A DNA stretch of 64,000 bases from an uncultured Candidatus Saccharibacteria bacterium (GCA_964363475.1 CAYIII010000001.1:2170-66169), one strand, 5' to 3'; shown: positions 400-60,221, numbered from the stretch's first letter. Notes: generated by a model not told the origin, from the letters alone. Program-made: numbers and translations.

Positions 400-625
400 A
401 CAAACCCCACCTTACATCCTTCATCACTTCACAAACAAAATATCAATTACCAATTTTCAATTTACAATCAATTTTCAATTATCAATTTTCAATAAAATCC
501 CAAATCCCAATGACCAATGTCCAACAAAATCCCAAAATCTCAAATCCCAATAACCAATTATCAATTGCCAATTTACAATCAATTTTCAATTACCAATTAT
601 CAATTATTGATAATTAGGTCTTTTG
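400..625. repeat. Satellite-like low-complexity region of degenerate 6-9 nt units (CAATTTT, CCAATTA, AAATCCCAA), containing about four copies of the AAATCCCAA motif
   Basis: Direct reading. The motif CAAATCCCAATGACCAA here matches the 14-nt units inserted in folD (1028-1058) and resembles the 17302-17411 segment. Confidence 0.6.
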
Positions 626-636: not shown

Positions 637-936
637 AACAACCACCCTCTTTCTCGACGAGGCCGTGGAGGCGAATAAGTTGGGGGGTGGCTGGTGTTTG
701 TTGAGAAAGGCGTCTCGGAAGCCGAGCGGGCATGGTACCAGCAGTCTTGTTATAATATTCTATTAACAAGACTGCTGGTGAGCGAGGCTGAGAGTCGAGT
801 GGTGATTTTCTCGCTGGAGAAAATCAACCACGTACTTTCGAGACAAACACCAGACAGGACCCCCCCTTCTTTTATATGAGCCGTAACACCTGCCTGCCGG
901 TAGGCAGGGGTTGAGGAGAGGAAGAGGGTGGTTGTT
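637..936. repeat. Structured repeat element, copy A. Its 5' end AACAACCACCCTCTTTCTC (637-655) pairs with its 3' end GAGGAAGAGGGTGGTTGTT (918-936) in a 19-bp helix. Candidate ncRNA or MITE-like structured repeat
   Basis: Nucleotides 643-677 are identical to 27327-27361 of copy B. The 3' block TATATGAGCCGTAACA...GGTTGAGGAGAGGAAG is conserved, and the terminal helix shows a compensatory pair change versus copy B. There are internal variable hairpins (cagcagtcttgtta...taacaagactgctg, cctgcc...ggcagg). Confidence 0.6.
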
Positions 937-1717
937 AATTCTCTTTATTTAATTTATAAAAATTCTCAAAAAGTTTTGCCACCAAAATAGGGCCGGTACC
1001 GCCGGGAGTAGGGGTGTAAAAACCTAATTTGGTCATTGGGATTTGGTCATTGGGATTTTTAAGGTCTGGCGGAAAACCAAAATCTATAATCCCCGCTCCC
1101 TCTTTAAGCCATTCGGGGTCAATTAAATCCTTTTGTCCAACGCCGGTAATAATCAAATCCGCGCCTAATAAAAACTTAGCCAGATTCTTTGTCTTGCTGT
1201 CCGCTATTTTAAATTTTAAATTTTCCCGCCCCAGCCACTTGATAACCGGCTGGCCAACCAACTTCCCCTTCCCCACCACAATAATTTTTAAACTATTCAA
1301 ATTTTTGACGCCCGCCCAATCCAACACCTCCTTAACCACTCCAACCACCGGTGGCTCAACCAGCGCGCCGGCAGTAAGAGCGTCCACATCTTTTTTCGCG
1401 TCAATATTAGACAATACTTTTTCCCTGTCAAATTTTTTTGGCAAAGGAAGCTGAACAATTACGCCGCCAATATTAAAATCGCCGGATATTTTCTTAACTT
1501 TTTCTTCCAAATCTTCTTGAGAAACCAAATCTGACAACTGATATATATCAAATCTAATGCTCAAAATACCCGCAATCTTTTCTTTTATTTTTAAAAAGGA
1601 CTGAGACGCTTTGTCATTACCCACTAAAATAGCGGCCAGAATTTTATCAGGAACAGGACTCGCCCTCAACCTCTCAACTATTTTGCCGGCAATTAATCTG
1701 CCGTCCACTTTTTGCAT
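935..1717 (-). CDS. folD: bifunctional methylenetetrahydrofolate dehydrogenase/cyclohydrolase FolD
   Basis: 260-aa ORF with FolD-like motifs (GRLIAGK, VQLPLP, TPTPGGTGP); overlaps glyA. Contains an in-frame tandem 14-nt repeat insertion at 1028-1058. Confidence 0.85.
   Translation of the reverse strand: MQKVDGRLIAGKIVERLRASPVPDKILAAILVGNDKASQSFLKIKEKIAGILSIRFDIYQLSDLVSQEDLEEKVKKISGDFNIGGVIVQLPLPKKFDREKVLSNIDAKKDVDALTAGALVEPPVVGVVKEVLDWAGVKNLNSLKIIVVGKGKLVGQPVIKWLGRENLKFKIADSKTKNLAKFLLGADLIITGVGQKDLIDPEWLKEGAGIIDFGFPPDLKNPNDQIPMTKLGFYTPTPGGTGPILVAKLFENFYKLNKEN
1028..1058. repeat. Intragenic tandem duplication of a 14-nt unit (TTGGTCATTGGGAT x2) in folD, encoding ...KNPNDQIPMTK...
   Basis: Direct reading. 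Its reverse complement AATCCCAATGACCA x2 matches the AAATCCCAATGACCAA motif of the 400-625 satellite. Confidence 0.7.
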
Positions 1718-10116: not shown

Positions 10117-10168
10117 CAGTGTTCGACAAGCCCTTCGACGCGGCTCAGGACAAGCTCACTGCAAGCAT

Positions 10169-17226: not shown

Positions 17227-17244
17227 TCAATTTTTAATTATATT

Positions 17245-17468
17245 GGAACTTGGTGCTTGAGATTTTATTAGGTTAATTAGAGTAATTAGAAATTAGAAAT
17301 TAACCTAATTAATCTAATAAAACCCCAAATCTCAATAACCAAATCCCAATAAAATCTTAAAATCACAAATCCCAACATTGGACCTTGGGGTTTGGGGCTT
17401 TGTTGGGATTTGGAACTTGGTGCTTGAGATTTTATTAGGTTAATTAGAGTAATTAGAAATTAGAAATT
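17245..17468. repeat. Complex intergenic repeat. Two identical 57-bp direct repeats (17245-17301, 17412-17468) flank a 110-bp segment rich in CAAATCCCAA / TTGGGATTTGG motifs. Each 57-mer has an internal inverted repeat
   Basis: Direct reading. ggaacttggtgcttgagattttattaggttaattagagtaattagaaattagaaatt occurs twice; 17262-17280 is complementary to 17303-17321; ccccaaa/tttgggg pairing is possible. Confidence 0.7.
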
Positions 17469-17525
17469 TTGTAAGGTGGACATTTATTTGACCAAAACGT
17501 CAAATTACCTTAAAATATCGGTTCA

Positions 17526-24328: not shown

Positions 24329-27223
24329 TTATTTTCTTATTCCCAGCCAAATTTTTGAGCCGTCTAAGTCAACCTCAATAAAATGCTCAACTTTTTCCGT
24401 TCTCTCAAAAATAATTTCTTCCGCGTTGATATCTTTTCTAAAACCCTTGTTGCTTTCTAAAACGCTTTGCAATTTTTTTGGCAAGTCGGCGTGCAAAATA
24501 ATTTTGTTTTGGGGGGAATATTCGGCATCGCGCCTTAATCCTTGAATCGCTCTCGCCAATTCCCTTACGGCGCCTTCATTTTTCAGTTCTTCGGTAATGT
24601 TAATATCCAGCTCAATCTCGTCATTAATTTTGGAATCAAAAATAATTTCTTTGACATTTATTTCATCGGCTAATATATGTAATAATTCTTCGTTATTTTT
24701 TAATTTTTCATTTTTAATTTTTAATTTCCTCAACGGCTGTCTTATCTTAATCCCCGCTTCCGCTCTTTTGGCCAAAGCCAAACTGGCCAACGTTCTGACA
24801 TCCGACATATCTTCAATTAATTTTTTACTTGCCCCTCGAAGCTTTAGCGAAGTGGGGTCAACCCTTGGCCATTCTTCCAAATGAACGGAAACGCCACCGC
24901 TTAAAGATTTATACAAAGCATCCGCGAAAAACGGGACGAATGGAGCGATTAGTTTGCTGATTTCCAGTAAAACATTTTGTAAGATAGGCAACGCCTCCGC
25001 GCGCTTGCGTGAACGGCGAATGTACCAATGAGACAAGTCGCTTACGAATAACTCTAAAATTTTAGCCGCATACCCTATTTCATATTTGTTAAGATTCTCT
25101 TCAACTTCTAAAATAGTTTCATTTAATCTGGAGAAAATCCACTTATCTAAAATATTACTTAACTGGAAATTAGTCCGCCAACTGGCGGATGGGACTTGGG
25201 GCTCATTTTTTGAATAGGTCTCAAAAAATACATATGAATTATAAAGCAACGAGATAAAACGCCTGAAGGCCTTGCTTAACTCCGCCTCATCAAACTTTTT
25301 GGGCTCTGCCGGAGGATTAACGGTATAGAAATACCACCTGATAACGTCTACTCCGTATTTATCAATCATCTCCCAAGGGTCAACGATATTATTTTTTGAT
25401 TTAGACATTTTCTGTCCATGTTTATCTAAAAGATGGCCAAGTGAAATAACATTTTTGTAAGGGGTGTCTTCATTTAATAAAACGCCAATGGCCAGCAATG
25501 TATAAAACCAGCCGCGAGTTTGGTCAATTGCTTCGCAAATATAATCCGCCGGATAACGGTTCGGATATTCTCCGCTCGCAAACGGCATGCCGCCGGAATC
25601 AAACCAAACATCCGCCACTTCTTTCACTCTTGTCATAGAGCCATTACACTTCGGACAAATTAATTTCACTTCATCAATATAAGGACGATGCAAATCAGCC
25701 GGCGCCTCACCGCCATGCTCTTTAAGTTCGTCTCTGCTGCCAATCACTAATTTTTCATCGCATTTTTCACACTCCCAAATAGGCAATGGCGTGCCCCAAT
25801 AACGCTCGCGAGAAATAGCCCAGTCCTTTACCCCTTGAAGCCACTCCCCGAAACGCCCGCTTTGAAGATGATGGGGAATCCAATTTATTTTCTCGTTGGC
25901 TTTTAACAAATCGCTTCTTAACTTACTCATCTCTATAAACCAAGAAAATCTGGGAAAGTAAATGAGGGCTCTGGAACAGCGCCAGCAAAAAGGATAGTCA
26001 TGTTCAATCGTGGTCTGGTAAAAAAGCAAATTTCTTTTTTGAAGGTCTTCTAATATATCTTTATCCGCTTCTTTAATATATTTGCCCGCGCCGGGCAATC
26101 CGTTTTTCATAATCCCCTGGTCATCAATAGTTACGGGAAAGTCGCTCATTTTGTTTCTCATTAAATTCAAGTCATCCTCGCCAAAAGAGGCAATATGAAT
26201 TAATCCGGTTCCATCTTCCGCGCTGACAAAATCAGCCTTCACCACTTCATGAGGACCGTTATTTTCATACAAGGACTCATATTTTAGGCCAATCATTTTT
26301 TTTCCGGAAAGTTTTTCTATGACCTCTATCTTAGTGTCCGAAGAAAATGGCGGCGCGTTAACAGCCCAAATATATTCGCCATTAATTTCATATTTTGTGT
26401 AAGTTAATTCCGGATTTACGGCAATAGCCAGATTTGCCGGCAAAGTCCACGGAGTGGTGGTCCATATTAATAAGTATTCGTTAACTTGGGATTTGGAACT
26501 TGGGATTTGGAACTTTATATATACTGACGGGTCCTTAACTTTCTTATACGCCCCCGGCTGTCCCAACTCATGGCTTGATAAAGATGTTTGGCAACGAGGG
26601 CACCACGGAACTACTTTATAAAACTTATTTAATAATCCCCTCTCGTCAATCTTTTTAAAAACGCCCCACAATTTTTCCAAATAATCGTTTTCGTAAGTTA
26701 TATACGCATTTTCAAAGTCCAACCAAAAACCGATTCTTTCAGTTAATTTTTCCCATTCATCCTTATATTTCCAGACGGATTCTTTGGCTTTTTTATTAAA
26801 TTCGGCAATGCCAAATTTTTCTATGTCCTGCTTGTTTTTAATTCCTAATTCTTTTTCAACTTCAATTTCCACGGGCAAGCCCTGCGTATCCCAACCGGCG
26901 CGACGGGGCGCATAATAACCTTGCATAGTTTTAAACCGTAAAATAATATCTTTAAAAGCACGGGCTAAGATATGATGAGTGCCGGGACGGCCATTGGCAG
27001 TCGGAGGACCTTCATAAAATATGAATTCTCTTTTCCCTTTTGATTGGCTTAAGGTTTTTGAAAAGATATTATTTTCTCGCCAAAAATCCAAAACTTTTTC
27101 TTCAATTTCTGGAAGATTAAACTGTTTTAAACCACGCAACATAAGTAAAATAATAAGCCAAAAACTGCTTTTTTTCAACGAAGGTTCGTTCATCAACAAC
27201 CATCCTCTATATAGCAACCCCAC
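24329..27223 (-). CDS. ileS: isoleucine--tRNA ligase
   Basis: 964 aa with the HIGH-class motif (PPTANGRPGTHH), KMSKS, and CP1 editing domain. Contains two in-frame repeat insertions (25165-25203 and 26484-26514). Confidence 0.9.
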   Translation of the reverse strand: MGLLYRGWLLMNEPSLKKSSFWLIILLMLRGLKQFNLPEIEEKVLDFWRENNIFSKTLSQSKGKREFIFYEGPPTANGRPGTHHILARAFKDIILRFKTMQGYYAPRRAGWDTQGLPVEIEVEKELGIKNKQDIEKFGIAEFNKKAKESVWKYKDEWEKLTERIGFWLDFENAYITYENDYLEKLWGVFKKIDERGLLNKFYKVVPWCPRCQTSLSSHELGQPGAYKKVKDPSVYIKFQIPSSKSQVNEYLLIWTTTPWTLPANLAIAVNPELTYTKYEINGEYIWAVNAPPFSSDTKIEVIEKLSGKKMIGLKYESLYENNGPHEVVKADFVSAEDGTGLIHIASFGEDDLNLMRNKMSDFPVTIDDQGIMKNGLPGAGKYIKEADKDILEDLQKRNLLFYQTTIEHDYPFCWRCSRALIYFPRFSWFIEMSKLRSDLLKANEKINWIPHHLQSGRFGEWLQGVKDWAISRERYWGTPLPIWECEKCDEKLVIGSRDELKEHGGEAPADLHRPYIDEVKLICPKCNGSMTRVKEVADVWFDSGGMPFASGEYPNRYPADYICEAIDQTRGWFYTLLAIGVLLNEDTPYKNVISLGHLLDKHGQKMSKSKNNIVDPWEMIDKYGVDVIRWYFYTVNPPAEPKKFDEAELSKAFRRFISLLYNSYVFFETYSKNEPQVPSASWRTNFQLSNILDKWIFSRLNETILEVEENLNKYEIGYAAKILELFVSDLSHWYIRRSRKRAEALPILQNVLLEISKLIAPFVPFFADALYKSLSGGVSVHLEEWPRVDPTSLKLRGASKKLIEDMSDVRTLASLALAKRAEAGIKIRQPLRKLKIKNEKLKNNEELLHILADEINVKEIIFDSKINDEIELDINITEELKNEGAVRELARAIQGLRRDAEYSPQNKIILHADLPKKLQSVLESNKGFRKDINAEEIIFERTEKVEHFIEVDLDGSKIWLGIRK
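25165..25203. repeat. Intragenic palindromic repeat element #1 in ileS (GGAAATTAG-TCCGCCAACTGGCGGA-TGGGACTTGG), encoding EPQVPSASWRTNFQLS
   Basis: Direct reading. The near-palindromic core TCCGCCAACTGGCGGA is shared with copies at 40281, 46589 and 36841. Confidence 0.8.
26484..26514. repeat. Intragenic tandem 14-nt repeat (AACTTGGGATTTGG x2) in ileS, encoding KFQIPSSKSQV
   Basis: Direct reading. Same TTGGGATTTGG motif as the folD insertion and the intergenic satellite regions. Confidence 0.7.
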
Positions 27224-27320
27224 CCCATATCCTTCATCAATACCGTCCTCGTTCAGAATAAAACTGAACTCGGATTAAATATTGATTCAGGATACGAGGT
27301 GGGGCTGTATACTAAACAAA

Positions 27321-27540
27321 AACCACCACCCTCTTTCTCGACGAGGCCGTGGAGGCGAATATATAAATTACGAAGCTTGGAGTAAGGCTATAAGCAAAAA
27401 AGCGCTGATAGAATCCCAAGTCCCGATACTAACAGTATCGGGACGGGTTGAGTTCGCTTTTTTGCTATATAGCACACGACAAGCGAGTCGCAATTTATAT
27501 GAGCCGTAACAGGTTGAGGAGAGGAAGGGGGTGGTGGTTT
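27321..27540. repeat. Structured repeat element, copy B. 5' AACCACCACCCTCTTTCTC (27321-27339) pairs with 3' GAGGAAGGGGGTGGTGGTT (27522-27540). Candidate ncRNA or MITE-like structured repeat
   Basis: Shares a 35-nt identical 5' block and a conserved 3' block with copy A (637-936). Internal hairpin cccgatact-aac-agtatcggg. Lies between divergent ileS and the Cas4-like gene. Confidence 0.6.
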
Positions 27541-27611
27541 ATATTGGGGTTGGAGAAAACAAGTGGTCTTTGGTTATAGATAAAAAAATTATTTTTCGTT
27601 AAAATAAAGCA

Positions 27612-35442: not shown

Positions 35443-36732
35443 ATGGACGGAAGGCATTATTTAGAAAGTGTCTTTAAGCGAATTGATGAAACCGCTAAAA
35501 TACTTCAACTAAAACCCTACGTTATAAAAGAACTGAAAACTTTTTCCAGGGTTTTAGAAATGAGAATCCGGGTTGGCAAACAACATTTTACCGCTTATCG
35601 CATTCGTCATGTAAATCCTTACGCGACTGGCCATCGCCCCTATAAAGGCGGCTTGCGTTTTGATAAAGATACCGGTGGAGACCTGAATACCATCAAAGCG
35701 TTAGCGGTGGAAATGACTTTAAAATGCGCCACCGTGGGACCGGACCCGGAACGACGCTTGCCTTTTGGAGGCGCAAAGGGGGGGATAGGAATTAATGCAA
35801 AGATTTATTCTAAAGAACAAATAAGGGGGATAGTGGAAAAATTTGTGGATGAAATGGGGAACGCGATGGGGCCAACGGTTGATGTGCCGGCGCCTGATTA
35901 CGGAACTAATGAAGAAATAATGCGGCTTATTAGCACTCGTTATTGCAAATCTCACCCCTTTTCCGGTTCCGGAGCGGTAGTTACAGGCAAACCCCTAAGT
36001 AGGGGGGGAGGCGGTTGTCCGGGACGCAAGGAGGCAACTGGATTGGGAATGCTATACGCTTACAGTACTTTAAAAGAACTAAAAGCCCTGCCGGAAGCGG
36101 TGATCAACACAAAACATCCTCGAGCAGTAATTCACGGCTTTGGCAACGTAGGTTCTCATTTTGGTTTATATGCCGGTCAGTTCGGAATTAAAATTGTTGG
36201 AGTCGCCGAAGTTAATGCCACAATTTATAATGCCAACGGCATTAATATGGAGGAACTCTACGACTATGCCAATGAAAATAAAACCGTTGCCGGATTTCCC
36301 AATGCTCACGAAATTACTTTTGAAAATTTACTGCGCCAACCGCATGAAATAGACGCTCCCTGCGCCAAAGAAAATTCCATTGATGATAACTGGGCCAACA
36401 CCACGGAAGCAAAATTAGTTATTGAAGGCGCAAACGGCCCTTGTTTTCAAAAAGCCGAAGATATTTTTACCAAAAGAGGAATCGTGATAGTGCCTGACTT
36501 ATTAGCCAATGCCGGCGGCGTCACCGTGTCTTATTTTGAGTGGCAACAAGATATTGAAGGAGCGCAATACGACAAAAAGACCATATTTGAACAATTAGAA
36601 AAATACATGCGCACCGGCACGGAGGGCGTTGTAAAAATGGCGCAAGAATATCGCACAGACCTGCGGACGGGCGCTTATATTTGGTCTATTAAGTACCTTA
36701 ACGACGCTATTTGCGCCAAACACGGCTGGTAA
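35443..36732 (+). CDS. gdh: Glu/Leu/Phe/Val dehydrogenase family protein (glutamate dehydrogenase)
   Basis: Catalytic Lys motif (FGGAKGGI) and the GFGNVGSH NAD(P)-binding motif. Confidence 0.8.
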   Translation: MDGRHYLESVFKRIDETAKILQLKPYVIKELKTFSRVLEMRIRVGKQHFTAYRIRHVNPYATGHRPYKGGLRFDKDTGGDLNTIKALAVEMTLKCATVGPDPERRLPFGGAKGGIGINAKIYSKEQIRGIVEKFVDEMGNAMGPTVDVPAPDYGTNEEIMRLISTRYCKSHPFSGSGAVVTGKPLSRGGGGCPGRKEATGLGMLYAYSTLKELKALPEAVINTKHPRAVIHGFGNVGSHFGLYAGQFGIKIVGVAEVNATIYNANGINMEELYDYANENKTVAGFPNAHEITFENLLRQPHEIDAPCAKENSIDDNWANTTEAKLVIEGANGPCFQKAEDIFTKRGIVIVPDLLANAGGVTVSYFEWQQDIEGAQYDKKTIFEQLEKYMRTGTEGVVKMAQEYRTDLRTGAYIWSIKYLNDAICAKHGW

Positions 36733-37636
36733 GCAATAGTCCCGAAACCAACCAAAATATTATCAGGCCGGAACGCAAAGTCCATAAAAAATGGTCAAAT
36801 AAACCAAGTAAAACTAATGCCAGAAGCATTATTTTCAAATTTCCAATTTCCATCCGCCAACTGGCAGGCCAATTTCCAATAAATAAATAAATTAAAAAAA
36901 TAAGAAATAACGAAAAACCAACCAGCCCTATTTCTACCGCAATAGTTAAATATAAATTATGAATGGGACGCTCGCCCATCGCAAAAGTTAAGCCGTGACC
37001 AAACCACGGTTTTTCTTTTATTTTTTCCCAAGCAAATTGATAATCGCTTAAACGGTTCTGTACGGAAAAGTCCTGATAATTAAAATTAACGCGGGGGAAA
37101 ATCGCCCAAGAAAACATCAAGCTCAAAGTTACGAACGTTAAAAAAACAATTAATAATAAGTCCTTATTATAATTAATTAAAAGAAAAAGCGCGCTTGCCA
37201 TTATTCCCACAATCCAGCCGGCCCGAGAAAAAGTCAAAATCAATCCTAGCCAATTTATAAATATCGTCGCAACGAATAAGAATAAAAATTTTTTATTGTA
37301 CAGAAAATAAACGCTTAACAAACTTAAAACCAAAAAAGTGGCTAAAATATTGGGATGAGGAAACAAGCCATAGGCCCTTAATAACCGTCCCCCATCAATA
37401 AAAACCCGGGCCAAGTCCTTATTAAGAGGGCTTAAAAAGGACTCGCCTAAAAAATATAAACCCAAACTTTTATGAGAAACAAACTGAATCAAGCCAAGAA
37501 GAGATTGCAACGCGCCCAAAATCGTCAGACCAATAAATATCCGCCTTATTGATAAAAAATTTTTATTTGCCCTTATTTCCATTGGAAAGGGCCGCTTTTT
37601 TAACCACCCTATCTTCCAAAAACCAAAGAAAAACAA
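36707..37636 (-). CDS. O-antigen ligase-like (Wzy_C) membrane protein
   Basis: Multi-TM protein; contains the in-frame palindromic repeat at 36841-36880 encoding NWPASWRMEIGN. Confidence 0.5.
   Translation of the reverse strand: MFFFGFWKIGWLKKRPFPMEIRANKNFLSIRRIFIGLTILGALQSLLGLIQFVSHKSLGLYFLGESFLSPLNKDLARVFIDGGRLLRAYGLFPHPNILATFLVLSLLSVYFLYNKKFLFLFVATIFINWLGLILTFSRAGWIVGIMASALFLLINYNKDLLLIVFLTFVTLSLMFSWAIFPRVNFNYQDFSVQNRLSDYQFAWEKIKEKPWFGHGLTFAMGERPIHNLYLTIAVEIGLVGFSLFLIFLIYLFIGNWPASWRMEIGNLKIMLLALVLLGLFDHFLWTLRSGLIIFWLVSGLLLTSRVWRK
36841..36880. repeat. Intragenic palindromic repeat element #4, in opposite orientation relative to the host gene compared with copies #1 and #3
   Basis: + strand reads TTCCAATTTCCA-TCCGCCAACTGGCAGG-CCAATTTCCAA, the reverse complement of the GGAAATTGG-core-GGAAATTGG arrangement. 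Confidence 0.8.
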
Positions 37637-38619: not shown

Positions 38620-40011
38620 TTATTTTAATTCATAAGAAACATTAAGGTCTGGAAGCATAGCGTTAATTGCCAACTCATCTTTCAATGCCTGCGCCAAAAC
38701 ATTGCCTTCTTTTTCTTCGCCTTGAACTAAAAATATATTTTTTAAATTTTGTCTTTGCGGCTTAATCCAATTTAATAATTGCGGTTTGTCGGCATGAGCG
38801 GAATAACCGCTAATGGCCTTAACCTTGCAATTCACATTAATCTCCTCGCCAAATATCTTAACTTTTTTCTCTCCATCCAATAATTTTCTTCCCAACGAAC
38901 CCATAGCTTGATAACCAACCACAAGCAATGTGCTGTTTGGGTCCGATAAATAACGGCGCTCGTGATGTAAAATTCTCCCGCCATTAGACATGCCGGAACC
39001 GGCAATAATCACCTTTGGAGGCAAGACATCATTAATTGATTTGGACTCTTCGGTAGTTAAGGTTGTCTTCAGGCCAGGAAAATTAAAATGCATACTGCCG
39101 TCAATCAAATAGCGGCGATTTTTCTCATAAACTTCGGTCAATTTAATCGCCAAAGGACTGTCAATAAAAACCGGGATTCTTGGAATTCGCTTTTGTTCAA
39201 CTAATTGGTCAATTTCAAAAATCATTTCCTGCGTTCGTTCCATGGCAAAAGCCGGAATCATTAAAACCCCATTACTTCTGACCACGTCCTCAATCAGGTC
39301 CTCAATGATTTCTTTTCTTTTTTCCAGGTCCTCGTGAATTCTGCCGCCATAAGTGGATTCCATTACGCAATAATCGGCCTCCGGCAATTCTTCTTTTGAG
39401 CCCAATAGCGGAGCCGGACTATTTCCCAAATCACCCGAAAAAACAATTTTAGTCCTTCCGTTATCAACAAGTATAAAACTTGAGCCCAAAATATGGCCAG
39501 CATTGTATAATCTCACTGATAAATTATCTATCTTAATGGATTGGTGATATTCCACTCCTTCCCATAATTGCATCGTCAATGAAATATCATTTGATGTGTA
39601 CAGTAATGGCTTATTTTTTTTATCAGCTTCTTGAGATAGAATATGCTCCGAATCCAAAAGTAAAAGCCCCGAGGCGTCTCTGGTGGGGGGAGTGGAAAAA
39701 ATTTTTCCGCCAAATCCCGATTTAACTAATTGAGGCAAGCGTCCAATGTGGTCAATATGAGAATGAGTAACAAAGACCGCTTTTATTTCTTTGGGGTCAT
39801 ACAAAAACGGCTCCCAATTATGGGCTTCGCAATAACTGCTTCCCTGATGCAATCCGCAATCTATCAAAATTTTAGTATCGCCATCTTCTAGCAAATAATT
39901 TGCTCCGGTAACCGATTTGACCGCCCCGTAGAAAGTTATCTTCATATGACAGATAATACCACTTGCTTGTCGCTCCAGGGAATTTTTTGGTTGTTTTTTT
40001 TGTGAATCCAC
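38620..40011 (-). CDS. MBL-fold beta-CASP ribonuclease (RNase J/CPSF-like)
   Basis: VTHSHIDHIG motif, beta-CASP region, C-terminal RNA-metabolising MBL domain. Confidence 0.7.
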   Translation of the reverse strand: MDSQKKQPKNSLERQASGIICHMKITFYGAVKSVTGANYLLEDGDTKILIDCGLHQGSSYCEAHNWEPFLYDPKEIKAVFVTHSHIDHIGRLPQLVKSGFGGKIFSTPPTRDASGLLLLDSEHILSQEADKKNKPLLYTSNDISLTMQLWEGVEYHQSIKIDNLSVRLYNAGHILGSSFILVDNGRTKIVFSGDLGNSPAPLLGSKEELPEADYCVMESTYGGRIHEDLEKRKEIIEDLIEDVVRSNGVLMIPAFAMERTQEMIFEIDQLVEQKRIPRIPVFIDSPLAIKLTEVYEKNRRYLIDGSMHFNFPGLKTTLTTEESKSINDVLPPKVIIAGSGMSNGGRILHHERRYLSDPNSTLLVVGYQAMGSLGRKLLDGEKKVKIFGEEINVNCKVKAISGYSAHADKPQLLNWIKPQRQNLKNIFLVQGEEKEGNVLAQALKDELAINAMLPDLNVSYELK

Positions 40012-41111
40012 CGCTCACTGCCCTTTCCGGTAATTGCCACGACATCGCCGGGCCCAGCCAAACTAACAGCTTTTTTAATAGCTTCTTTTCTGTCCAATAT
40101 TTTTTGAGCCCGAGGACAACCCGCGGCTATTTCATTAATAATGTCTTCCAGTTCTTCATTATATGAATCTTCATCCGTCAAGATGATTTCATCGCAATAT
40201 TGCCCGGCAATTTTACCCATTTCCGGACGCTTCCATTTATCTCTCCCCCCACCGGCCGCGCCTAATACACATATTAATTTGGAAATTGGTCCGCCAACTG
40301 GCGGATGGGAATTGGGATTTTTTTCTCTAAGGGCCTCATAAACTTTACGCAAAGAGTCCGGCGTATGAGCATAATCCAAAACCACGGCAAATGGTTCTTT
40401 TTTTAAAAATTCCATTCTTCCGGAAATTCCGGAGAACTCGCCCACGGCTTCTTTAATAATATCGCGCGCAATGCCTCGCGATTCCGCGAAAGCGACGGCG
40501 GCGCCGATATTATATTTATTAAAATCGCCAATTAAATTGGAAAACAAATCGCTTTTTTCATAAAGAATAATTTTTCCTCCTCCAACGGCATCTATGAAAT
40601 CTTTTGAGCTAGCATCGTCTTTATTAATTATAAATAATTTTGAGAATCCACTGCCCGCATACCTAAAAAAATCTAATTTGGCTTTTTTATAATTATCAAA
40701 CGAACCATGGGCTTCAATGTGTTCTGGAGACAAATTAGTAAAAATAACAGCATCCCACTTGATAAAACGGTGGCGACTTTGTGAAACCCCTTGAGAAGTT
40801 ACTTCTATTAGAGCGTAATCACATTTACCGACAACCGCTTTCTTCAAAAATCTTTGCAAGAAAAATCTTCCGGGCATTGTCATGGAGGACTCACCATTAC
40901 GCAAAGAAGAACTTACGGCTACTTTCTTTCCCGCTTTTTCTAAAATAAAAGCCGTAAGCTCTAAAACGGTGGACTTTCCTTTTGTGCCCGTAACACCTAA
41001 AACAAAAATGTTCCTTGAGGGAAAATCGCAGAATAAAGCGGCAAAAAAAGACCATAACCAGTGATAGATAAAAACCAGCCAAGAAAAACGATAAAATATC
41101 TTTCTAATCAT
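39942..41111 (-). CDS. Mur ligase family protein (MurE/MurF-like UDP-N-acetylmuramoyl peptide ligase)
   Basis: P-loop VLGVTGTKGKSTV, Mur ligase middle and C domains. In-frame palindromic repeat at 40281-40320 encoding KNPNSHPPVGGPISKL. Confidence 0.6.
   Translation of the reverse strand: MIRKIFYRFSWLVFIYHWLWSFFAALFCDFPSRNIFVLGVTGTKGKSTVLELTAFILEKAGKKVAVSSSLRNGESSMTMPGRFFLQRFLKKAVVGKCDYALIEVTSQGVSQSRHRFIKWDAVIFTNLSPEHIEAHGSFDNYKKAKLDFFRYAGSGFSKLFIINKDDASSKDFIDAVGGGKIILYEKSDLFSNLIGDFNKYNIGAAVAFAESRGIARDIIKEAVGEFSGISGRMEFLKKEPFAVVLDYAHTPDSLRKVYEALREKNPNSHPPVGGPISKLICVLGAAGGGRDKWKRPEMGKIAGQYCDEIILTDEDSYNEELEDIINEIAAGCPRAQKILDRKEAIKKAVSLAGPGDVVAITGKGSERWIHKKNNQKIPWSDKQVVLSVI
40281..40320. repeat. 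Intragenic palindromic repeat element #2 (GGAAATTGG-TCCGCCAACTGGCGGA-TGGGAATTGGGATTT)
   Basis: Direct reading; shares the core and flanks with #1, #3, #4 and ends in the TTGGGATTT motif. Confidence 0.8.
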
Positions 41112-41689: not shown

Positions 41690-41783
41690 ATAGTGAGCTT
41701 GTCCTGAGCCGCGCCGAAGGGCTTGTCGAACTATTGCTTCCATAATATAGGACTTTATGGCATAATTCCAGCTCATTTCAAAT

Positions 41784-43828: not shown

Positions 43829-46372
43829 CTAGGGAAGAGGGATGCCACTTTCTATCTCTGAGAGAGAGCCGTCAATATATTCATAATTATAAAAACTGTC
43901 TATCACCCAGTAAGGAAGCGCCCTCACATAACTCGGCAGTCCTCCTTGTTCCTTTTCATATAACTCCGCAAATTCTCCTACTAATCTTTCGGTTTCTTCT
44001 ACTAAGAGACGTCTCATAAATTCACATCTTTTTTCTTCATCAGCTATATACTCACTGTCACCCACCTTAGAAAGCAATGACTTAGCTTGATGCTCATCAA
44101 TAGGAAAACCATATTCTCTTAAGAGAAATCCGAAAGCTCTTGCCGTTAATAAAGGGTCCTCTAATAAGAGGTCGCTTCCCGTTCTTCTGCTTTTCTTATA
44201 AAAAAGGTTTAACTCTTCACAAGGTATACAATACACCATAGAAACATCCGGGATATTGACGCCTTTCTCGGCCAACCACCTATCTCTAAGCTCAACAAGA
44301 GTACCGATATTGCCAACATTACCAACAATAGTAACGGGGGCGGAAGTAAGGGCCCTACCAAAAACACCTAGCCCCTTCCCCAAAGATGTCCACCAGCTTG
44401 TCGGGGGTTTTGGCGCAGTAACCGGAACTGTTGTAAGAGGTTTAACTACAATCCCCCTTGGTCCTGACTCTAAAGCTTTAAGTGGCTTGATATCGGGAAT
44501 ATCGGAAATTTGAGCCGGTTTAGAATAAACTTGTTTCCTTCGTATTCTAATGTCTGGTAGTTCTTGCCTTGCATCTACTACAAATAAGTCCGGAACCGTT
44601 GTTGGTCGAGACGGAAGACTAGGAAGCGCTTGTTTGGCATGCAAATCTAGCACCTTGCCCCTTGCATGTCTATATGCTCTATAAATATGTTCATCAACAA
44701 TCGATGGTGATAGCTTATTCCCTTGATTCCATTCATAGATTCTAGATTGAACAACTTCTTGTTGTGGAAGCGATAAATCATACATATATTTTTCAAATAA
44801 TTCTACTAACCTGCCCTCTTCCTTTCGAATGACAGGGAGTTGTTGAGTCTTCCTGGCGGCATTGACATAATGCGCTGGTCTAACATCTATTTGCGAAAAG
44901 GGCTTTCCCCCTCTCGCGTGCTCTTCAACTATTCGTCTTTGCGAGTCAGTAAAATATGATGGATGTTTTTCGACAGCTTCTAAAATCTTAATTTTATCTT
45001 TCGTACCTCCTTTTAAGTCGACACCTGCTTTTGTATCTACGCTATTAAAATATTTACTAATAACAAGCTGCCCTCCCCTAGGAGAAATTTCACGCATGGT
45101 CTCTGGTAAATGCCCCTCATCAATTAATTTATTTAAAATAGTTGTATAATCTAATTTATCTCCATTTTTCCAAGTTAATCTTAGTTCTGATACTCTCCGC
45201 TCAATTATAGTGATTTTTCCTTCATTAAACGCCTCAAGAATTAATCTCTTTGTTTCTTCTTCTTCTTTTAAAATATCAGGTAGCGTTGCAATCCTGGCCT
45301 GGATCGCATCCCAGCTTTCACTAACGACTTTTGGTTTTATCGATTCATTTTTAGCAATCTCTATAAAAGTATGCTTGCTGCCGTCTTCGCGACGGGTAAG
45401 ATAAGCTCTAGCAATATCTCTCATTCTGGAAGTAAAATACTGGGGATATTCATCAATGACGCTTAATAAGCGAGCTTCACTTTCTAAGTCAGAAAAAAGC
45501 GTAGCCGTTTTTGAAAGAGCGTCATTAAGAGAATTTCGAACGGATCTTACTGATAAATTAGTTCCGTATAACTTATTATACTCCAATGTTATTTCTGCTA
45601 CCGCGCCTCTACCAACAAAACCCTGATTAGTGTAAATTTCCATTATCCTATATTGTTGTTCGGTAAAAACTCCAGGATATTTGAGCAATAAATCCCCCAG
45701 AGGAGATCTAACTCCTATTGCTTTTTTGGAATCGTGTATATGTACAAGAATACCAGCGTAAGCATCCATTACTTCATCCACAGTCCAATCTAGTTCTTGA
45801 GCAATTTTAGTAAATAAATCACCTTGTTGATTTTCTGGCTTTAAAAGCGATTCTATAAGCTTTTTTTCGTCATGATTTTTCGGCAAAGAATTGGCATAAT
45901 CTTGAAAAGCTTTTTTAGAAAAAGGATGCTGTGAGGCAATCTCTGTTGGGACAATTAATGATATTTTATTTCCAGTTTTAATATTTTCGATGTAAAAATC
46001 GCTACCGGGTCCAGCTTGATATAATGGTAAATCCGTTCTATCGAATCTTATTCGAAATCCTAACTCCTCTATTTCCTTATAGTGATCACTGTAAACATCC
46101 AATATAGCTTCCGCTTTCGCATGGGACCTACTAAATGTTTCAGGTTCATACGACGAAACCTTATCCAAATTCAGCCACTTTTCTCCCGTTACTACATCTT
46201 CTTCGCCACCATATTTATTGTAAACCTTTTCTAAATCTGTACGAAATGCTTCCCACAATTCTTCTAACGATAGGGGAGCGGCCCAAGTTGCAGAAAATAC
46301 CACAAAAAATAGACAGTAAAATAAGGTTAACGATAGAAAGCCACGCATAGGTAAATCATAACATAATAGCAA
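43829..46372 (-). CDS. large hypothetical secreted or membrane-anchored protein (847 aa)
   Basis: N-terminal hydrophobic segment, Pro-rich linker (about aa 600-650), no recognisable catalytic motif. Confidence 0.45.
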   Translation of the reverse strand: MLLCYDLPMRGFLSLTLFYCLFFVVFSATWAAPLSLEELWEAFRTDLEKVYNKYGGEEDVVTGEKWLNLDKVSSYEPETFSRSHAKAEAILDVYSDHYKEIEELGFRIRFDRTDLPLYQAGPGSDFYIENIKTGNKISLIVPTEIASQHPFSKKAFQDYANSLPKNHDEKKLIESLLKPENQQGDLFTKIAQELDWTVDEVMDAYAGILVHIHDSKKAIGVRSPLGDLLLKYPGVFTEQQYRIMEIYTNQGFVGRGAVAEITLEYNKLYGTNLSVRSVRNSLNDALSKTATLFSDLESEARLLSVIDEYPQYFTSRMRDIARAYLTRREDGSKHTFIEIAKNESIKPKVVSESWDAIQARIATLPDILKEEEETKRLILEAFNEGKITIIERRVSELRLTWKNGDKLDYTTILNKLIDEGHLPETMREISPRGGQLVISKYFNSVDTKAGVDLKGGTKDKIKILEAVEKHPSYFTDSQRRIVEEHARGGKPFSQIDVRPAHYVNAARKTQQLPVIRKEEGRLVELFEKYMYDLSLPQQEVVQSRIYEWNQGNKLSPSIVDEHIYRAYRHARGKVLDLHAKQALPSLPSRPTTVPDLFVVDARQELPDIRIRRKQVYSKPAQISDIPDIKPLKALESGPRGIVVKPLTTVPVTAPKPPTSWWTSLGKGLGVFGRALTSAPVTIVGNVGNIGTLVELRDRWLAEKGVNIPDVSMVYCIPCEELNLFYKKSRRTGSDLLLEDPLLTARAFGFLLREYGFPIDEHQAKSLLSKVGDSEYIADEEKRCEFMRRLLVEETERLVGEFAELYEKEQGGLPSYVRALPYWVIDSFYNYEYIDGSLSEIESGIPLP

Positions 46373-47138
46373 AATCAGTTAGAGCGGTTTCGTAGTCCAA
46401 TTTTCCCGATTTAACGGCAATGTCATAATCGGCCATTAATTTTTTATTTTCAGGACTTGTCGTGAAAGCCAAAACATTAAATATCTTAGCCGGGTCTTCT
46501 TCTTTTATTAATGTCTCCAAAATGGGTATTTTGCTTAAAAAATTACCGCGAGATAATTTATTAACTAAATTAAAAAAATCGTACCCTAATTGGAAATTGG
46601 TTCGCCAGTTGGCGGATGGAAATTGGAAATTATACAAAGCCAATTTGTCTAGCTCCGTAACAAGTCCCCAGCAATCCCCCCTATATTGCCTTAATAAATT
46701 ATTTAAAAAATCCAAAGGCAATTTTAGGTCTCTTTTTTCCAATTCTTTTTGCGCAAACTTTTCCCAGTCCTTATTTTGTAAAGTATCAAACTCTTGAAAA
46801 ATAACCGGTTTCTTCAAGAGAAAATCAAATTCCTTATTGGGCTTGTCATCAGAGACCAGCAATAAAATAAGCTCCTTTGTTGATAAGTTCTTCTTGAAAA
46901 TTTCTTTTAATTCCGATTGGAAGGGATTGGCAACTACTGCCATTCTGAAAGAATCAAACAAAGAAACCGCCGACACAAATTCCTTCAAACGAATCAAATC
47001 GTCGCCCTCCTCTAAATCAAACTTATCAACGCTTAAATGAGAATGTTTTAATTGATACTGCTTAACAATCTCCTTCTGCTTATGAAATCTGAAATATGAT
47101 TCCGGGCCGTAGAGAAAAATAATCATTGAATCTGGCAA
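46356..47138 (-). CDS. holA: DNA polymerase III subunit delta-like protein
   Basis: N-terminal IIFLYGPESYF (typical HolA start). Contains the in-frame palindromic repeat at 46589-46630. Confidence 0.55.
   Translation of the reverse strand: MPDSMIIFLYGPESYFRFHKQKEIVKQYQLKHSHLSVDKFDLEEGDDLIRLKEFVSAVSLFDSFRMAVVANPFQSELKEIFKKNLSTKELILLLVSDDKPNKEFDFLLKKPVIFQEFDTLQNKDWEKFAQKELEKRDLKLPLDFLNNLLRQYRGDCWGLVTELDKLALYNFQFPSANWRTNFQLGYDFFNLVNKLSRGNFLSKIPILETLIKEEDPAKIFNVLAFTTSPENKKLMADYDIAVKSGKLDYETALTDFAIML
46589..46630. repeat. Intragenic palindromic repeat element #3 (ATTGGAAATTGG-TTCGCCAGTTGGCGGA-TGGAAATTGGAAATT), encoding NFQFPSANWRTNFQL
   Basis: Direct reading; same frame and peptide as copy #1 in ileS. 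Confidence 0.8.
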
Positions 47139-49040: not shown

Positions 49041-50276
49041 TTATAGTGGTTTTAATTCCCCCCAATTACAGCCGATTTTAACATTAACTTTAAGAGGGAC
49101 GCTTAAACGATAAATCGATTCCATTATATTTTTAATATCATCAACGACATCTTTTACTTTATCATCCTCAATTTCAAACAACAACTCGTCATGAATAGAC
49201 AGCAAAAGACGGTATTTATTGGTTTGAATCATCGCCATTTTAATAATATCCGCGGCCAAGCTTTGAATCGGCATATTAATTGCCGCCCTCTCCGCTTCAA
49301 TGGGCAGCCATCTTTTCCTTCCGTTTAAATTTTCCACATATCCCTTTTGACGCAGCTCATTTTTAACTTTTTCCTGCCAATCGCGAACTTGGGCAAAATC
49401 GTTAAAATATTCCGCAATAAATTTTTCCGCTTCTTGACGAGACAAACCGCTAGCTCGAGCAAAAGCCGAAGGACCCATACCGTATACAACGCCAAAATTT
49501 AAGGTTTTAGCTAATTGTCTCATATCTAAAGTTACTTTTTCTAACGGCGTGTTAAAAACTTGACTGGCTGTTAATTTGTGAATATCTAAATCATTTTGAA
49601 AGGCCTCAATCATTTTTTTGTCGTTAGCCGCCGTCGCCAAAACTCTTAATTCTATTTGAGAATAATCAAAAGAGACAAAAACACAGCCAGCTCTGGCGAC
49701 AAAAGCCGGCCTAATAACATCGGGAACATTTTGTAAATTGGGATTTTTAGAGCTTAATCTTCCGGTAGCGGTTCCTGTTTGCAAAAAAGTGGTGCGCGCC
49801 ATCTCTCCCAAGCCCAATAAGGGCTCTACGTAAGTGGATTGGGCTTTAAAAATTTCGCGATAATTTAAGATTAAAGAAATGACGGGGTGCTTATCTTTAA
49901 TCAATTCCAATTGTCCAGCGGCCGTGGACTTCAGCCGAGGAACGATTTTTAACTTATCAAATAAAACGGCCGCCATCTGTTTAGGCGAATTAACATTAAA
50001 CTCTCCCGTATGTTGATATATTTTCTTTATCAAGTCCTCAATTTGTTGAGATTGTCTTTTCCTTAAATTTTTTAAAAAATTAGAGTCCAAACCGACGCCT
50101 CTCTCGTGCATATCTTTCAAAACGGGCATTAGCGGCAATTCTATTTCTTTTAAAATTTTATCCAATCCAAACTGAGCTAATCTTTCCTCGGCCTCTTTAA
50201 GACGAAGACCCGCGTAAACTTGCGGCTCATCGGGATTTAAAAGCCAATTAATTATGTCTCTTTCGGTTTCCGTCAT
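49041..50276 (-). CDS. polA: DNA polymerase I, polymerase domain only (family A)
   Basis: Motif A (DYSQIELR), motif B (RQLAKTLNFGVVYG), motif C (HDELLFE). No 3'-5' exonuclease domain. Start overlaps the upstream 5'-3' exonuclease ORF by 4 nt. Confidence 0.8.
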   Translation of the reverse strand: MTETERDIINWLLNPDEPQVYAGLRLKEAEERLAQFGLDKILKEIELPLMPVLKDMHERGVGLDSNFLKNLRKRQSQQIEDLIKKIYQHTGEFNVNSPKQMAAVLFDKLKIVPRLKSTAAGQLELIKDKHPVISLILNYREIFKAQSTYVEPLLGLGEMARTTFLQTGTATGRLSSKNPNLQNVPDVIRPAFVARAGCVFVSFDYSQIELRVLATAANDKKMIEAFQNDLDIHKLTASQVFNTPLEKVTLDMRQLAKTLNFGVVYGMGPSAFARASGLSRQEAEKFIAEYFNDFAQVRDWQEKVKNELRQKGYVENLNGRKRWLPIEAERAAINMPIQSLAADIIKMAMIQTNKYRLLLSIHDELLFEIEDDKVKDVVDDIKNIMESIYRLSVPLKVNVKIGCNWGELKPL

Positions 50277-51157
50277 AATTTGTCTATTAAACTATTAAAT
50301 CCAAGTTTTTGAAAGTGCGATATTAAAGAATTTTTATCATATGGACGCAATTTGAAATCATTTAATGATTTTATTTCTAACGGCACGTCTTTTTTAATCG
50401 TGGCTAATTCCTTGGAAAGAAGGGCAATTTCTTTTTGGGCTTCCAGTTTAACGCCGATTTTGTCGGAAATTTCCCATAAATTATTAAAAATATTCTCTAA
50501 ACTGCCGTATTTTTGTAATAATGGTATGGCCGTCTTATAACCAACGCCTTTTACTCCGGGAATATTATCCGAAGTGTCGCCCACCAGCCCCTTTAAGTCC
50601 GGTAATTGTTTGGGGGTTAAGCCATAACGATTTTTCACGGCAACTTCATTGTATATTTCCACATCGCTTGTCCCCTTTTTAATAATCTCCACGACAATCT
50701 TGTCATTATCCACTAACTGCAAGTTATCCAAGTCCCCGGAAAGAATGGATGTGATTAAGTCCGGTTCGTTTTTAAATTTTTCGGCTAAACTTCCGATTAA
50801 ATCATCGGCCTCATAACCGGCTTTCTCTATTACTTTAACGCCAAATTGTTCAAATAATTCCCTGGCTTTATTGAATTGCGATATTAATTCGGGAGCCGGC
50901 TTAGGGCGTTGTATTTTGTATTCTTTAAAGACCTCTGCCCTAAAAGTTTTTTCCGGCCTGTCAAAAGTCGCGATAACATAATCCCGTTTCTTTTCCTTAA
51001 AGATATTAAGGATAAGGCGCGCTAATCCGTAAATGGAGCCGACGGATTCTCCTGCTGGCGTGGTTAGCGGCGGCAAGGCGTAGAAAAAACGATAGATTAG
51101 GGCGTGGGAATCAATCAATAATAATGTTTCTTTCATTTTTATCTTTTCCATGCTCAA
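50273..51157 (-). CDS. 5'-3' exonuclease (Pol I N-terminal / FEN-like domain) as a separate ORF
   Basis: LLLIDSHALIYRFFYA start, acidic metal-binding residues, HhH region (GVKGVGYKTA). Confidence 0.8.
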   Translation of the reverse strand: MSMEKIKMKETLLLIDSHALIYRFFYALPPLTTPAGESVGSIYGLARLILNIFKEKKRDYVIATFDRPEKTFRAEVFKEYKIQRPKPAPELISQFNKARELFEQFGVKVIEKAGYEADDLIGSLAEKFKNEPDLITSILSGDLDNLQLVDNDKIVVEIIKKGTSDVEIYNEVAVKNRYGLTPKQLPDLKGLVGDTSDNIPGVKGVGYKTAIPLLQKYGSLENIFNNLWEISDKIGVKLEAQKEIALLSKELATIKKDVPLEIKSLNDFKLRPYDKNSLISHFQKLGFNSLIDKL

Positions 51158-51542
51158 ATTCTATCCACAAAGCGGATTTTGGCAATAATTCCTTGATTTT
51201 GTCCGCCCATTCTATTAAAAGAATATTTTTGGGATTATCTAGTATCTCCTTAAATCCTAGCGCCAGCAATTCTTCTGGATTTTTTATGCGATAGCAATCT
51301 ATGTGATAAGCCGAGGCGTAATTTTGTCCGCCAATCGGCGAATTTAATTTATAATTTTTAATTATCGTAAAGGTGGGACTTGTAATTCTGCCTTTCACCT
51401 TCAATGCCCTTAAAAAAAATTGGGAAAAGGTAGTTTTTCCAGCGCCCAAATCGCCAATTAAAGCAAAAATTCTGCAAGGCAACCGAGATGCTAGGTCCTC
51501 GGCTACTTCTCTAGTGTTAAAAATATCTTTTGAATTGGTCAT
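51111..51542 (-). CDS. tsaE: tRNA threonylcarbamoyladenosine biosynthesis protein TsaE
   Basis: P-loop GDLGAGKTTF; about 143 aa. Confidence 0.75.
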   Translation of the reverse strand: MTNSKDIFNTREVAEDLASRLPCRIFALIGDLGAGKTTFSQFFLRALKVKGRITSPTFTIIKNYKLNSPIGGQNYASAYHIDCYRIKNPEELLALGFKEILDNPKNILLIEWADKIKELLPKSALWIEFEHGKDKNERNIIID

Positions 51543-60045: not shown

Positions 60046-60221
60046 ATTATTTATTTAATATATTTATTAGTAGTTAATAGTAGCACTTTTAATTTTTGTT
60101 GATAACTCATTTTTATTGCATTATTCCTCATATTTTTCATTTAATAAATTGTTTATAAAATCTTAAGTAATTCTGATATTATTGTTTATAATCTTTAATC
60201 GTCAATCTTTTCCACATTTAA
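60046..60221. promoter_or_regulatory. AT-rich dnaA-dnaN intergenic region; candidate DNA-unwinding element or secondary oriC module
   Basis: 176 bp of very high A+T with a DnaA-box-like TGTTGATAA at 60097-60105. Confidence 0.4.

Follow-up and report, generated by a model that had tools for sequence, protein, structure and literature searches.

Two essential enzymes of an uncultured Candidatus Saccharibacteria bacterium, FolD and IleS, are encoded by genes that carry short tandem arrays of a 7-nt unit inside their coding sequence. The arrays were studied in a low-GC stretch of 64,000 nt (GCA_964363475.1, CAYIII010000001.1:2170-66169; GC 0.34-0.41), referred to here as the window. Probably, although by no means certainly, both tracts, of about 4.5 units each, are short arrays that belong to a genome-wide heptamer family, (TTGGNNN)n, that is dispersed, resembles the short tandemly repeated repetitive (STRR) sequences and small dispersed repeats (SDR) of cyanobacteria, and has been filtered by selection into permissive loops. 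The best reading is that, in this Patescibacteria/Paceibacteria lineage, intergenic satellites and the sequences that flank a 42-nt hairpin element come from the same family. Several aspects are plain. The repeats are dispersed, common to unlinked loci of one genome, and present or absent between close relatives. They are also in frame and stop-free, and they occupy surface loops of essential enzymes.

Heptamer arrays in folD and ileS

The two focal arrays, as delimited by Tandem Repeats Finder (TRF), are:

1027..1058, minus strand (open reading frame, ORF, 935..1717): folD heptamer array; TRF period 14, 2.3 copies, 100% matches
26483..26515, minus strand (ORF 24329..27223): ileS heptamer array; TRF period 14, 2.4 copies, 100% matches

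The ORF at 935..1717 is FolD (Pfam THF_DHG_CYH plus THF_DHG_CYH_C, with PDB FolD structures matched at E ~1e-29) and the ORF at 24329..27223 is IleS (E = 3.5e-228 to PDB 8c8w). An earlier note on this DNA had described tandem 14-nt duplications at both sites, and in TRF these are indeed perfect (x2.3 and x2.4). On the plus strand the folD array reads (TTGGTCA TTGGGAT)x2.3, which is a ATCCCAATGACCAA-type sequence on the coding strand and encodes KNPNDQIPMTK. The ileS array reads (TTGGGAT TTGGAAC)x2.4 and encodes KFQIPSSKSQV. Both translations were given correctly in the note, and both are in frame and free of stops.

The tandem tracts are real, but 14 nt is not their basic period. When 4-mers recurring three times at a fixed spacing are counted across the window, 39 are found at spacing 7 and no more than 11 at any other spacing from 5 to 12. 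Spacing 7 is the sole over-represented period in that range, and the cores involved are CAAT, AATT and TTGG. The basic unit is a heptamer, (TTGGNNN)n, rather than a 14-mer. Therefore, the 14-nt units are heptamer pairs, TTGGTCA+TTGGGAT in folD and TTGGGAT+TTGGAAC in ileS. The suggestion that a 14-nt duplication preserves the reading frame also has to be given up. Each step of 14 nt shifts the frame by 2, and just the whole 33-nt tract is in frame.

Another claim that did not survive is that each array adds 11 residues to its protein. The FolD segment sits between the invariant sequences DFGFPPD and FYTPTPGG, in a loop that is hypervariable in an alignment of 28 FolD proteins, and in that alignment the loop of the window is no longer than the loops of its relatives. 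The IleS segment stands in place of KFKV-KNRD in the Priestia enzyme, for a net gain of just +3 aa over PDB 8c8w, and this loop also varies in length (0 to ~25 extra residues among 21 homologues). In other words, both arrays fill hypervariable loops and replace sequence of similar length; there are no net 11-aa insertions. The other comparison with orthologues does not count against the note, in that the duplicated segment is not conserved across them. An AlphaFold model of FolD fits the description of a tolerant loop. Its overall pLDDT (predicted local distance difference test) is 94, and the array-coded residues 221-230, with a mean of 67, form the sole low-confidence block and are predicted to lack secondary structure.

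Two smaller repeats lie in the same genes:

1206..1224, minus strand: mini heptamer array AAAATTT x2.7 in folD (TRF), at FolD aa 167 and at the second FolD hot spot described below (~-340 nt)
24828..24856, minus strand: third small ileS repeat, GC-rich CTTCGCTAAAGCTTCGAGGGGCAAG (PTSLKLRGAS), net +18 nt compared with a relative

The position of the 1206..1224 array is the exact site of a palindrome-2 insertion in a relative's FolD. However, the array may be partly coincidental, since the conserved LKFKI strand is encoded there too.

Most of the Paceibacteria IleS proteins retrieved (P0128-P0245) are ~1120-1215 aa long with an inserted histidine-phosphatase domain (PF00300), whereas the window IleS (964 aa) and a few others are without this insert.

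A proposed heptamer family inside and between genes

Motif frequency had been put forward in the earlier note as a check on its proposal, and the motif is strongly over-represented in the window. The exact 11-mer TTGGGATTTGG is found 6 times, at four separate loci, against 0.12 expected. With up to one mismatch there are 14 matches against 2.74 expected, and none of 100 shuffles has as many. The more general pattern TTGGN3TTGGN3TTGG, again with up to one mismatch, is matched 19 times against 0.58 expected. These matches cluster at 441-615, 1029-1058, 17236-17470 and 26486-26515, giving four array loci in 64 kb. The note was right, then, that the motif is found in intergenic arrays as well as in the coding tracts. 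The intergenic loci are:

441..615, plus strand: intergenic heptamer satellite of CAATTNN and CCAANNN units (TRF; repeat family D1)
17236..17470, no strand given: intergenic block in the iPGM/uvrC interval (repeat family D4; inverted arrays I1 with 70-nt arms)

Within the satellite at 441..615 lies AAATCCCAAATCCCAATGACCAATG, which corresponds to the folD array units in reverse complement, and positions 526-557 form an inverted pair with 1029-1060 (I17). The number of motif copies here had been put at four or more (in 400-625). This is true only in a loose sense, as the exact 11-mer occurs once and the rest are the 7-mer core and one-mismatch versions. The block at 17236..17470 consists of a 59-nt direct repeat (17243-17301 and 17410-17468) plus inverted heptamer arrays, and is predicted to fold into two long hairpins (minimum free energy, MFE, -70.9 kcal/mol; z = -6.0).

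Other searches of the window were less informative. The top over-represented 8-mers do not match the repeat units, and a candidate motif, CACGACAAGTCCTGA, was dropped with just 2 sites. A scan against Rfam returned tRNAs and tmRNA alone at the gathering threshold, and with a cutoff of E<=1 there was no credible match in 380-980 or in 27224-27611.

A 42-nt composite element

The next link between the heptamers and a dispersed repeat comes from a short element with a palindromic core. Aligned copies give the consensus (A)TTGGAAATTGG-TCCGCCAGCTGGCGGA-TGGAAATTGGAAATT, which has sharp boundaries and is 42 nt long, equal to 6x7 nt or 14 codons. The 10-nt flanks are direct repeats and the palindromic core is 16 nt. 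There are four clear copies and one degenerate copy in the window (family D2), every one in a different gene:

25163..25204, minus strand: ileS; heptamer flanks plus TCCGCCAACTGGCGGA, read as EPQVPSASWRTNFQ; net +18 nt compared with the orthologue in L004, a contig of the closest genome
36838..36880, minus strand: copy facing the opposite way, within a Wzy_C/O-antigen-ligase-like ORF (36707..37636) and read as IGNWPASWRMEIGN (I2, I4)
40279..40320, minus strand: MurE-like Mur ligase ORF (39942..41111), read as KNPNSHPPVGGPIS
46590..46631, minus strand: ORF (46356..47138) whose family is unknown; read as NFQFPSANWRTNFQ and flanked by the perfect 10-nt direct repeats TGGAAATTGG
51316..51357, minus strand: tsaE (51111..51542); degenerate palindrome copy TCCGCCAATCGGCGAA with AT-rich heptamer flanks

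All five host ORFs (IleS, Wzy_C-like, MurE, unknown, TsaE) stay open. The MurE-like copy is a 10-aa insertion compared with PDB 4bub and the tsaE copy adds +7 aa compared with PDB 1htw, in each case at a loop of the solved homologue. The palindrome copies are bordered by TTGGAAA-type heptamers, and the 16-nt palindrome is predicted to form a hairpin of -6.4 kcal/mol. The earlier note had recognized the 3' flank GGGAATTGGGATTT of the copy at 40279-40320, which is present and gives KNPN in the Mur-ligase frame. It had also proposed that one repeat family links the satellites, the coding tracts and the palindrome. The TTGGAAA-type flanks support this, as does the palindrome that lies inside a heptamer array in the FolD loop of the closest relative.

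The 42-nt consensus has no stop in any of its six frames. This is so for just 0.4% of its shuffles (P ~0.004) and for 1.1% of 42-mers drawn at random from the window. Hosts use no fewer than four of the six frames, with products such as PPAGG, SASWRT, IRQLAD and GNWSASW.

A scan of metagenomes with flanks plus core found seven further contigs, with each copy within an ORF. The sole DNA similarity between the window and these contigs is the 43-47-nt element itself, at 93-96% identity, whereas the host proteins, where alignable, are 27-58% identical to those of the window. The 16-nt core is also present in the FolD-centred loci of seven species, in differing frames, although the FolD proteins there are ~45% identical. 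Therefore, the conserved entity is nucleic acid and not peptide, and the 42-nt element is much better conserved between organisms than its host genes. Viral carriers of the element were searched for and none was found.

Arrays of (TTGGGAT)n do occur in 10 IMG/VR contigs (L092-L101). Their contexts are unrelated and partly high in GC, and they say little about the window genome. One of these contigs (L094, GC 0.68) has (AATGACC)x5 beside TTGGTCA TTGGGAT..., the units of the window folD array. The heptamer of plant telomeres, as (CCCTAAA)n, is found in a further sequence retrieved (L012).

Other repeats at the same sites in close relatives

Two contigs, L001 and L004, represent the closest genome and show synteny with the window; L004 comes from GCA_964488085.1. 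For most orthologues, identity between the two genomes is 80-97%, whereas FolD and IleS are 73-81% identical. What occupies the variable loops in relatives? In the FolD loop of one protein (P0003, 68% identity) it is ATATTGAAAATTGAAAATTGTAAATTGAAAATTGG, which consists of AAAATTG heptamers, in contrast to the CCAATGA/CCAAATC heptamers of the window. In that of a second (P0002, 73% identity), AAAATTG heptamers have TCCGCCAGCTGGCGGA nested within them. The situation in IleS is similar. At site 1, L004 has the GC-rich repeat FAKASEDKKASQGK in place of the window's heptamers, and CTTCGCTAAAGCTTCGGAGGACAAG at this site of the relative is a sister of the GC-rich CTTCGCTAAAGCTTCGAGGGGCAAG of the window.

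Clean insertions can also be recognized. A 21-nt in-frame insertion, CCTGCCTGCCGGTAGGCATGG, is found in the relative's FolD (L001), and a 42-nt in-frame insertion containing TCCGCCAGCTGGCGGA is found in the relative's UvrC (L004). Neither of these two junctions has a target-site duplication. The UvrC insertion comes directly after TTTAC(T/C). There are further differences from the closest genome: FolD and a PolX-like gene each show a palindrome of +12 nt, AAATTCG heptamers account for +9 nt, and the window IleS has a palindromic element and a GC-rich element of +18 nt each. A second type of palindrome is involved as well:

889..908, no strand given: second palindrome type CCTGCCTGCCGGTAGGCAGG, nested in a 315-nt structured element (622-936)

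The CCTGCCTGCCGGTAGGCAGG palindrome is also the clean 21-nt in-frame insertion of the relative's FolD.

The GC-rich elements may be compared with another repeat in the window. A GC-rich 40-nt sequence, GTTCGACAAGCCCTTCGACGCGGCTCAGGACAAGCTCACT (reads FDKPFDAAQDKLT), is present at 10121-10160 and 41692-41731 as inverted copies that are 98% complementary, one of them after tRNA-Pro and the other at the ruvA/uvrB divergent region. It resembles the in-frame GC-rich elements of IleS, namely PTSLKLRGAS in the window and FAKASEDKKASQGK and LRQAQDKP in homologues.

The picture within one population is quite different from that between relatives. Three independently assembled contigs from Hainich (groundwater well H51) match 29.8 kb of the window at 99.95-99.98% identity with zero gaps. 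The overlap takes in the folD and ileS arrays, the satellite at 441-615 and two more of the ileS repeats. The earlier note had expected copy-number variants from slippage in relatives. None was seen: the assemblies from the same population are gap-free as consensus sequences, and relatives at 73-81% aa identity differ in the type of repeat, not in copy number. In a further independent assembly of the same organism (MEK9183569.1, MEK9183935.1; P0122, P0124), contigs stop ~13 residues short of the folD array and within the palindrome of MurE.

A survey across Paceibacteria

FolD-centred loci were surveyed in 80 GTDB species representatives, which included Harrison-, Colwell-, Wolfe-, Lipton- and Jorgensenbacteria, Minisyncoccia and others. 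An excess at period 7 is found in ~40 of 81 distinct related loci (e.g., 40 vs 3, 32 vs 2 and 31 vs 1). The units are mostly AT-rich and are specific to lineages (such as TTCTTTA, TTCTAGA, ACTACAA, AACATCC, CCCTAAA and GACATGG), and arrays have 3, 4 or 5 units and seldom more. Most of the arrays are within genes, with 137 of 210 (65%) in ORFs of at least 120 aa.

FolD is a preferred location. Array density is 0.73 per kb in FolD compared with 0.14 elsewhere, and there are two hot spots, which lie ~340 and ~55 nt before the TPTPGG motif ends. The loop that holds the array in the window also has a heptamer array in roughly 25 of 66 species. Unlinked arrays share a 7-mer in 12.6% of cases within a genome and in 1.6% between genomes (8-fold; Fisher p = 4e-8).

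In FolD of several species (L046, L078, L020, L034 and L064) the conserved GDF hairpin is bordered on either side by arrays that are inverted to each other, e.g., CATGAAA... and a ...TTTCATG-like counterpart. The mRNA or single-stranded DNA of such loci could form a long hairpin across the coding segment.

Comparison with known repeat systems

The closest parallels appear to be in cyanobacteria. The STRR sequences of heterocystous cyanobacteria were reportedly described by Mazel and colleagues in 1990, mainly as intergenic repeats. Their units, reportedly CCCCAGT, TTGGTCA and CAACAGT, would include one that is the same as a folD unit (TTGGTCA). The likeness lies in the 7-nt unit, the short tandem arrays, their dispersal and the several unit families per genome. 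However, the host here belongs to Patescibacteria, with the nearest records being Patescibacteria/Paceibacteria metagenome-assembled genomes, and not to heterocystous cyanobacteria. A second difference is that 65% of the arrays here fall within long ORFs, essential genes among them, at loop hot spots that recur.

The SDR of Nostoc punctiforme are said to have been reported by Elhai and colleagues in 2008 as hairpin-capable sequences of tens of nt that are nested in heptameric repeats, with mobility inferred from presence or absence. They are not known to be associated with a transposase. The work of Elhai and colleagues (Genome Res 18:1484) is cited in PMC5861425 and PMC3116915. The 16-nt hairpin palindrome with its TTGGAAA flanks, nested in the AAAATTG array of a relative's FolD, is similar to SDR. 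So is presence or absence at orthologous sites, seen here for the 42-nt insertion in UvrC (L004), the 21-nt insertion in FolD (L001) and +18 nt in the window IleS. The differences from SDR, as these are reportedly described, are the phylum, the 42-nt composite structure with six open frames, and the intragenic position of all copies seen.

Heptanucleotide repeats in general have been known in cyanobacteria since 1990 and are over-represented in many bacteria with no accepted mechanism, according to PMC4692102, which also mentions that Calothrix PCC7601 has three heptanucleotides repeated in tandem. In Xanthomonas and Nostoc, GGGNATC heptamers (Rehm et al., 2015, PMC4692102) share with those of the window the period of 7, units with a G-tract, ~4 units per array and a dispersed distribution. 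However, no G-quadruplex is predicted here, and the units are mostly AT-rich, lineage-specific and in many cases coding.

Rickettsia palindromic elements (RPE; Ogata et al., 2000) are ~150 bp long and have one conserved peptide per family in one frame, as outlined in PMC10969869. As with RPE, the palindromic repeats here are in frame in unrelated housekeeping genes of a reduced genome and are apparently compatible with fold and function. Size and frame set them apart, as the element here is 42 nt with a 16-nt core, is read in at least four frames and is tied to heptamer arrays.

Repetitive extragenic palindromic sequences (REP) and REPINs are, according to PMC3116915 and PMC3733652, 20-40-nt GC-rich imperfect palindromes that are extragenic, have GTAG or CGTC tags and co-occur with a gene for the REP-associated tyrosine transposase (RAYT). 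They resemble the repeats here in being highly repeated palindromes for which no target-site duplication is expected under HUH/Y1 chemistry. In contrast, all copies here are within ORFs and the consensus has no GTAG or CGTC tag. No RAYT was detected among the window ORFs scanned against Pfam, which cover just 64 kb of the genome. The element also differs from MITEs (miniature transposable elements with inverted repeats), in that the two clean junctions lack a target-site duplication and the 42-nt flanks are direct and not inverted. Classical cut-and-paste or MITE insertion was rejected on the absence of target-site duplications.

In the literature searched, no paper connects heptamer repeats or in-frame palindromic elements with the candidate phyla radiation (CPR)/Patescibacteria. 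Relative to STRR/SDR, GGGNATC heptamers and RPE, what differs here is the phylum, the intragenic predominance in essential genes, the six-frame-open 42-nt composite and the recurrent hot spots.

How might the repeats have arisen?

The period that is unfavorable to the frame, the sharing of units, presence and absence between relatives, palindromes nested in arrays, an element that outlasts its host genes and the use of several frames argue together for a dispersed family, as opposed to independent slippage or selected peptides. Such a family would spread by a process that resembles copy-and-paste or gene conversion and leaves no target-site duplication, with the palindrome probably moving via hairpin-forming single-stranded DNA. 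Heptamer arrays would be preferred landing sites and would be remodelled locally through slippage of 7- or 14-nt units. Purifying selection would then retain those events with a total length of 3n and no stops in loops that tolerate new sequence. This would be why the same FolD and IleS loops hold different repeats in different lineages. The inserted peptides themselves would have no function of their own. At the same time, local slippage clearly contributes too, to judge from the perfect duplicates of 14 nt and from units that are specific to lineages at a hot spot of long standing.

Several observations weigh against a dispersed family. Just 12-17% of array pairs within a genome have a 7-mer in common. 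Lineage-specific units at the conserved FolD hot spot fit concerted evolution in situ at least equally well. An empty site for the folD and ileS arrays was found in no relative, making insertion and in-situ turnover inseparable there. The assemblies from the same population have no copy-number or presence/absence variants in the shared 29.8 kb, where consensus sequences cannot show minor alleles. The lack of length variants suggests that repeat activity has not been recent or frequent. Finally, no transposase, RAYT or integrase was detected among the window ORFs scanned against Pfam, in the part of the genome that the 64 kb represents.

Could each array simply have been born and evolved where it lies, as a pure microsatellite under replication slippage, with any sharing between loci due to convergence or composition? 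The two perfect 14-nt copies in each focal tract imply recent local duplication, the units at the FolD hot spot differ between lineages as concerted evolution of an old array predicts, and array sizes change in whole units (3, 4 and 5). However, steps of 7 or 14 nt break the frame, and genes should favor periods of 3n, yet it is 7 that is over-represented. Slippage at each locus also does not account for exact 11-mers at four loci far above expectation, for unit sharing that is 8-fold higher within genomes than between them, or for the flanks of the 42-nt element being kept across organisms, and it would predict length variants that the 29.8 kb do not have. On balance, a purely local origin is unlikely.

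It is less likely still that the repeats are functional nucleic-acid signals under selection, such as G-quadruplexes or protein-binding, uptake or recombination signals. The non-coding strand of both focal arrays does have four G-tracts, and a preference for four units is known for GGGNATC repeats (Rehm et al., PMC4692102). In addition, the 16-nt palindrome is identical in species with FolD ~45% identical, and intergenic copies form strong predicted hairpins. On the other hand, the units are wholly different between lineages and the sites are protein loops and not gene ends. Solo arrays have no predicted G-quadruplex or self-structure; their MFE is 0 with DNA parameters, and weak hairpins appear solely in G4-enabled RNA folding. 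The G-quadruplex in particular was rejected, since G4-enabled folding predicts none.

An ordinary selected protein sequence (a linker or an NPN/QIP motif), with DNA repetition as a by-product of codon usage, is very improbable. As this would require, no ORF is broken and the enzymes appear functional in other respects, but one DNA is read in differing frames and orientations in each host (PPAGG, SASWRT, IRQLAD and GNWSASW), which contradicts it, the segments are not conserved among orthologues and identical units lie in intergenic DNA. An artefact of assembly or binning, with chimeric joins at repeats in a metagenome-assembled contig, is the hardest to credit: the other assembly of the same organism does break at or near repeats, but three independent Hainich contigs reproduce 29.8 kb with both arrays and no gaps, the frames are open, and related elements occur in many unrelated assemblies.

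One further idea was put aside, that the arrays are footprints of repeated insertion and excision with 7-bp target duplications. Both the perfect two-unit duplication of 14 nt and the duplication-free junctions fit it poorly.

What the repeats would mean

The dispersed heptamer family could be part of something broader. A bolder and quite tentative possibility is that Paceibacteria have an activity that generates DNA of 7-nt period and mobilizes the six-frame-open 42-nt element, which lands preferentially in heptamer arrays. Loops of FolD, IleS, MurE, TsaE and UvrC would then be continuously rewritten, and the repeats would spread both within and between lineages. If true, it would add a new class of mobile DNA that is minimal and coding-compatible, and would offer a natural setting in which to ask why heptamers arise in bacteria. 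Conservation of the 42-nt element across hosts with ~30-60% protein identity points to a conserved recognizing enzyme or to horizontal spread.

Other consequences do not depend on this idea. Heptamer repeats now extend to a second phylum that is very distant, where they sit within essential genes of reduced genomes dense in genes. Few of the discrete dispersed elements described are as small as the 42-nt element, which is compatible with translation in every frame. The recurrent hot spots, two FolD loops in dozens of species, amount to many independent natural replicates for studies of origin and turnover. There are practical effects too. The repeats inflate the apparent divergence of marker proteins (73-81% identity for FolD and IleS vs mostly 80-97% for other orthologues), give predicted proteins low-complexity segments that look like repeats, and, tiny as they are, break up CPR assemblies.

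Additional features of the window

The ~315-nt element at 622-936 is predicted to be a very stable rod (MFE -162 kcal/mol, z = -11.4) whose ends pair as AACCACCCTCTT and AAGAGGGTGGTT. It has no Rfam match and resembles either a MITE or a structured RNA of unknown kind. A second copy (27313-27542) has just its 42-nt and 31-nt ends in common with the first. A third (L102, 7227-7541), ~2.4 kb past the left end of the window, is 99% identical and has compensatory C>T and G>A changes in the terminal stem. The first copy has the CCTGCCTGCCGGTAGGCAGG palindrome as an insertion, whereas the second is without it.

DNA polymerase I appears to be split (49041-51157) into a 5'-3' exonuclease ORF (50273..51157) and a family-A polymerase ORF (49041..50276; 411 aa), and a 3'-5' exonuclease domain was not detected in these ORFs. 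Finally, dnaN, dnaA, rnpA, yidC and an R3H (jag-like) gene cluster at 58933-63182, and the cumulative GC skew levels off from ~56 kb. The origin of replication probably lies near 61.6-61.8 kb.

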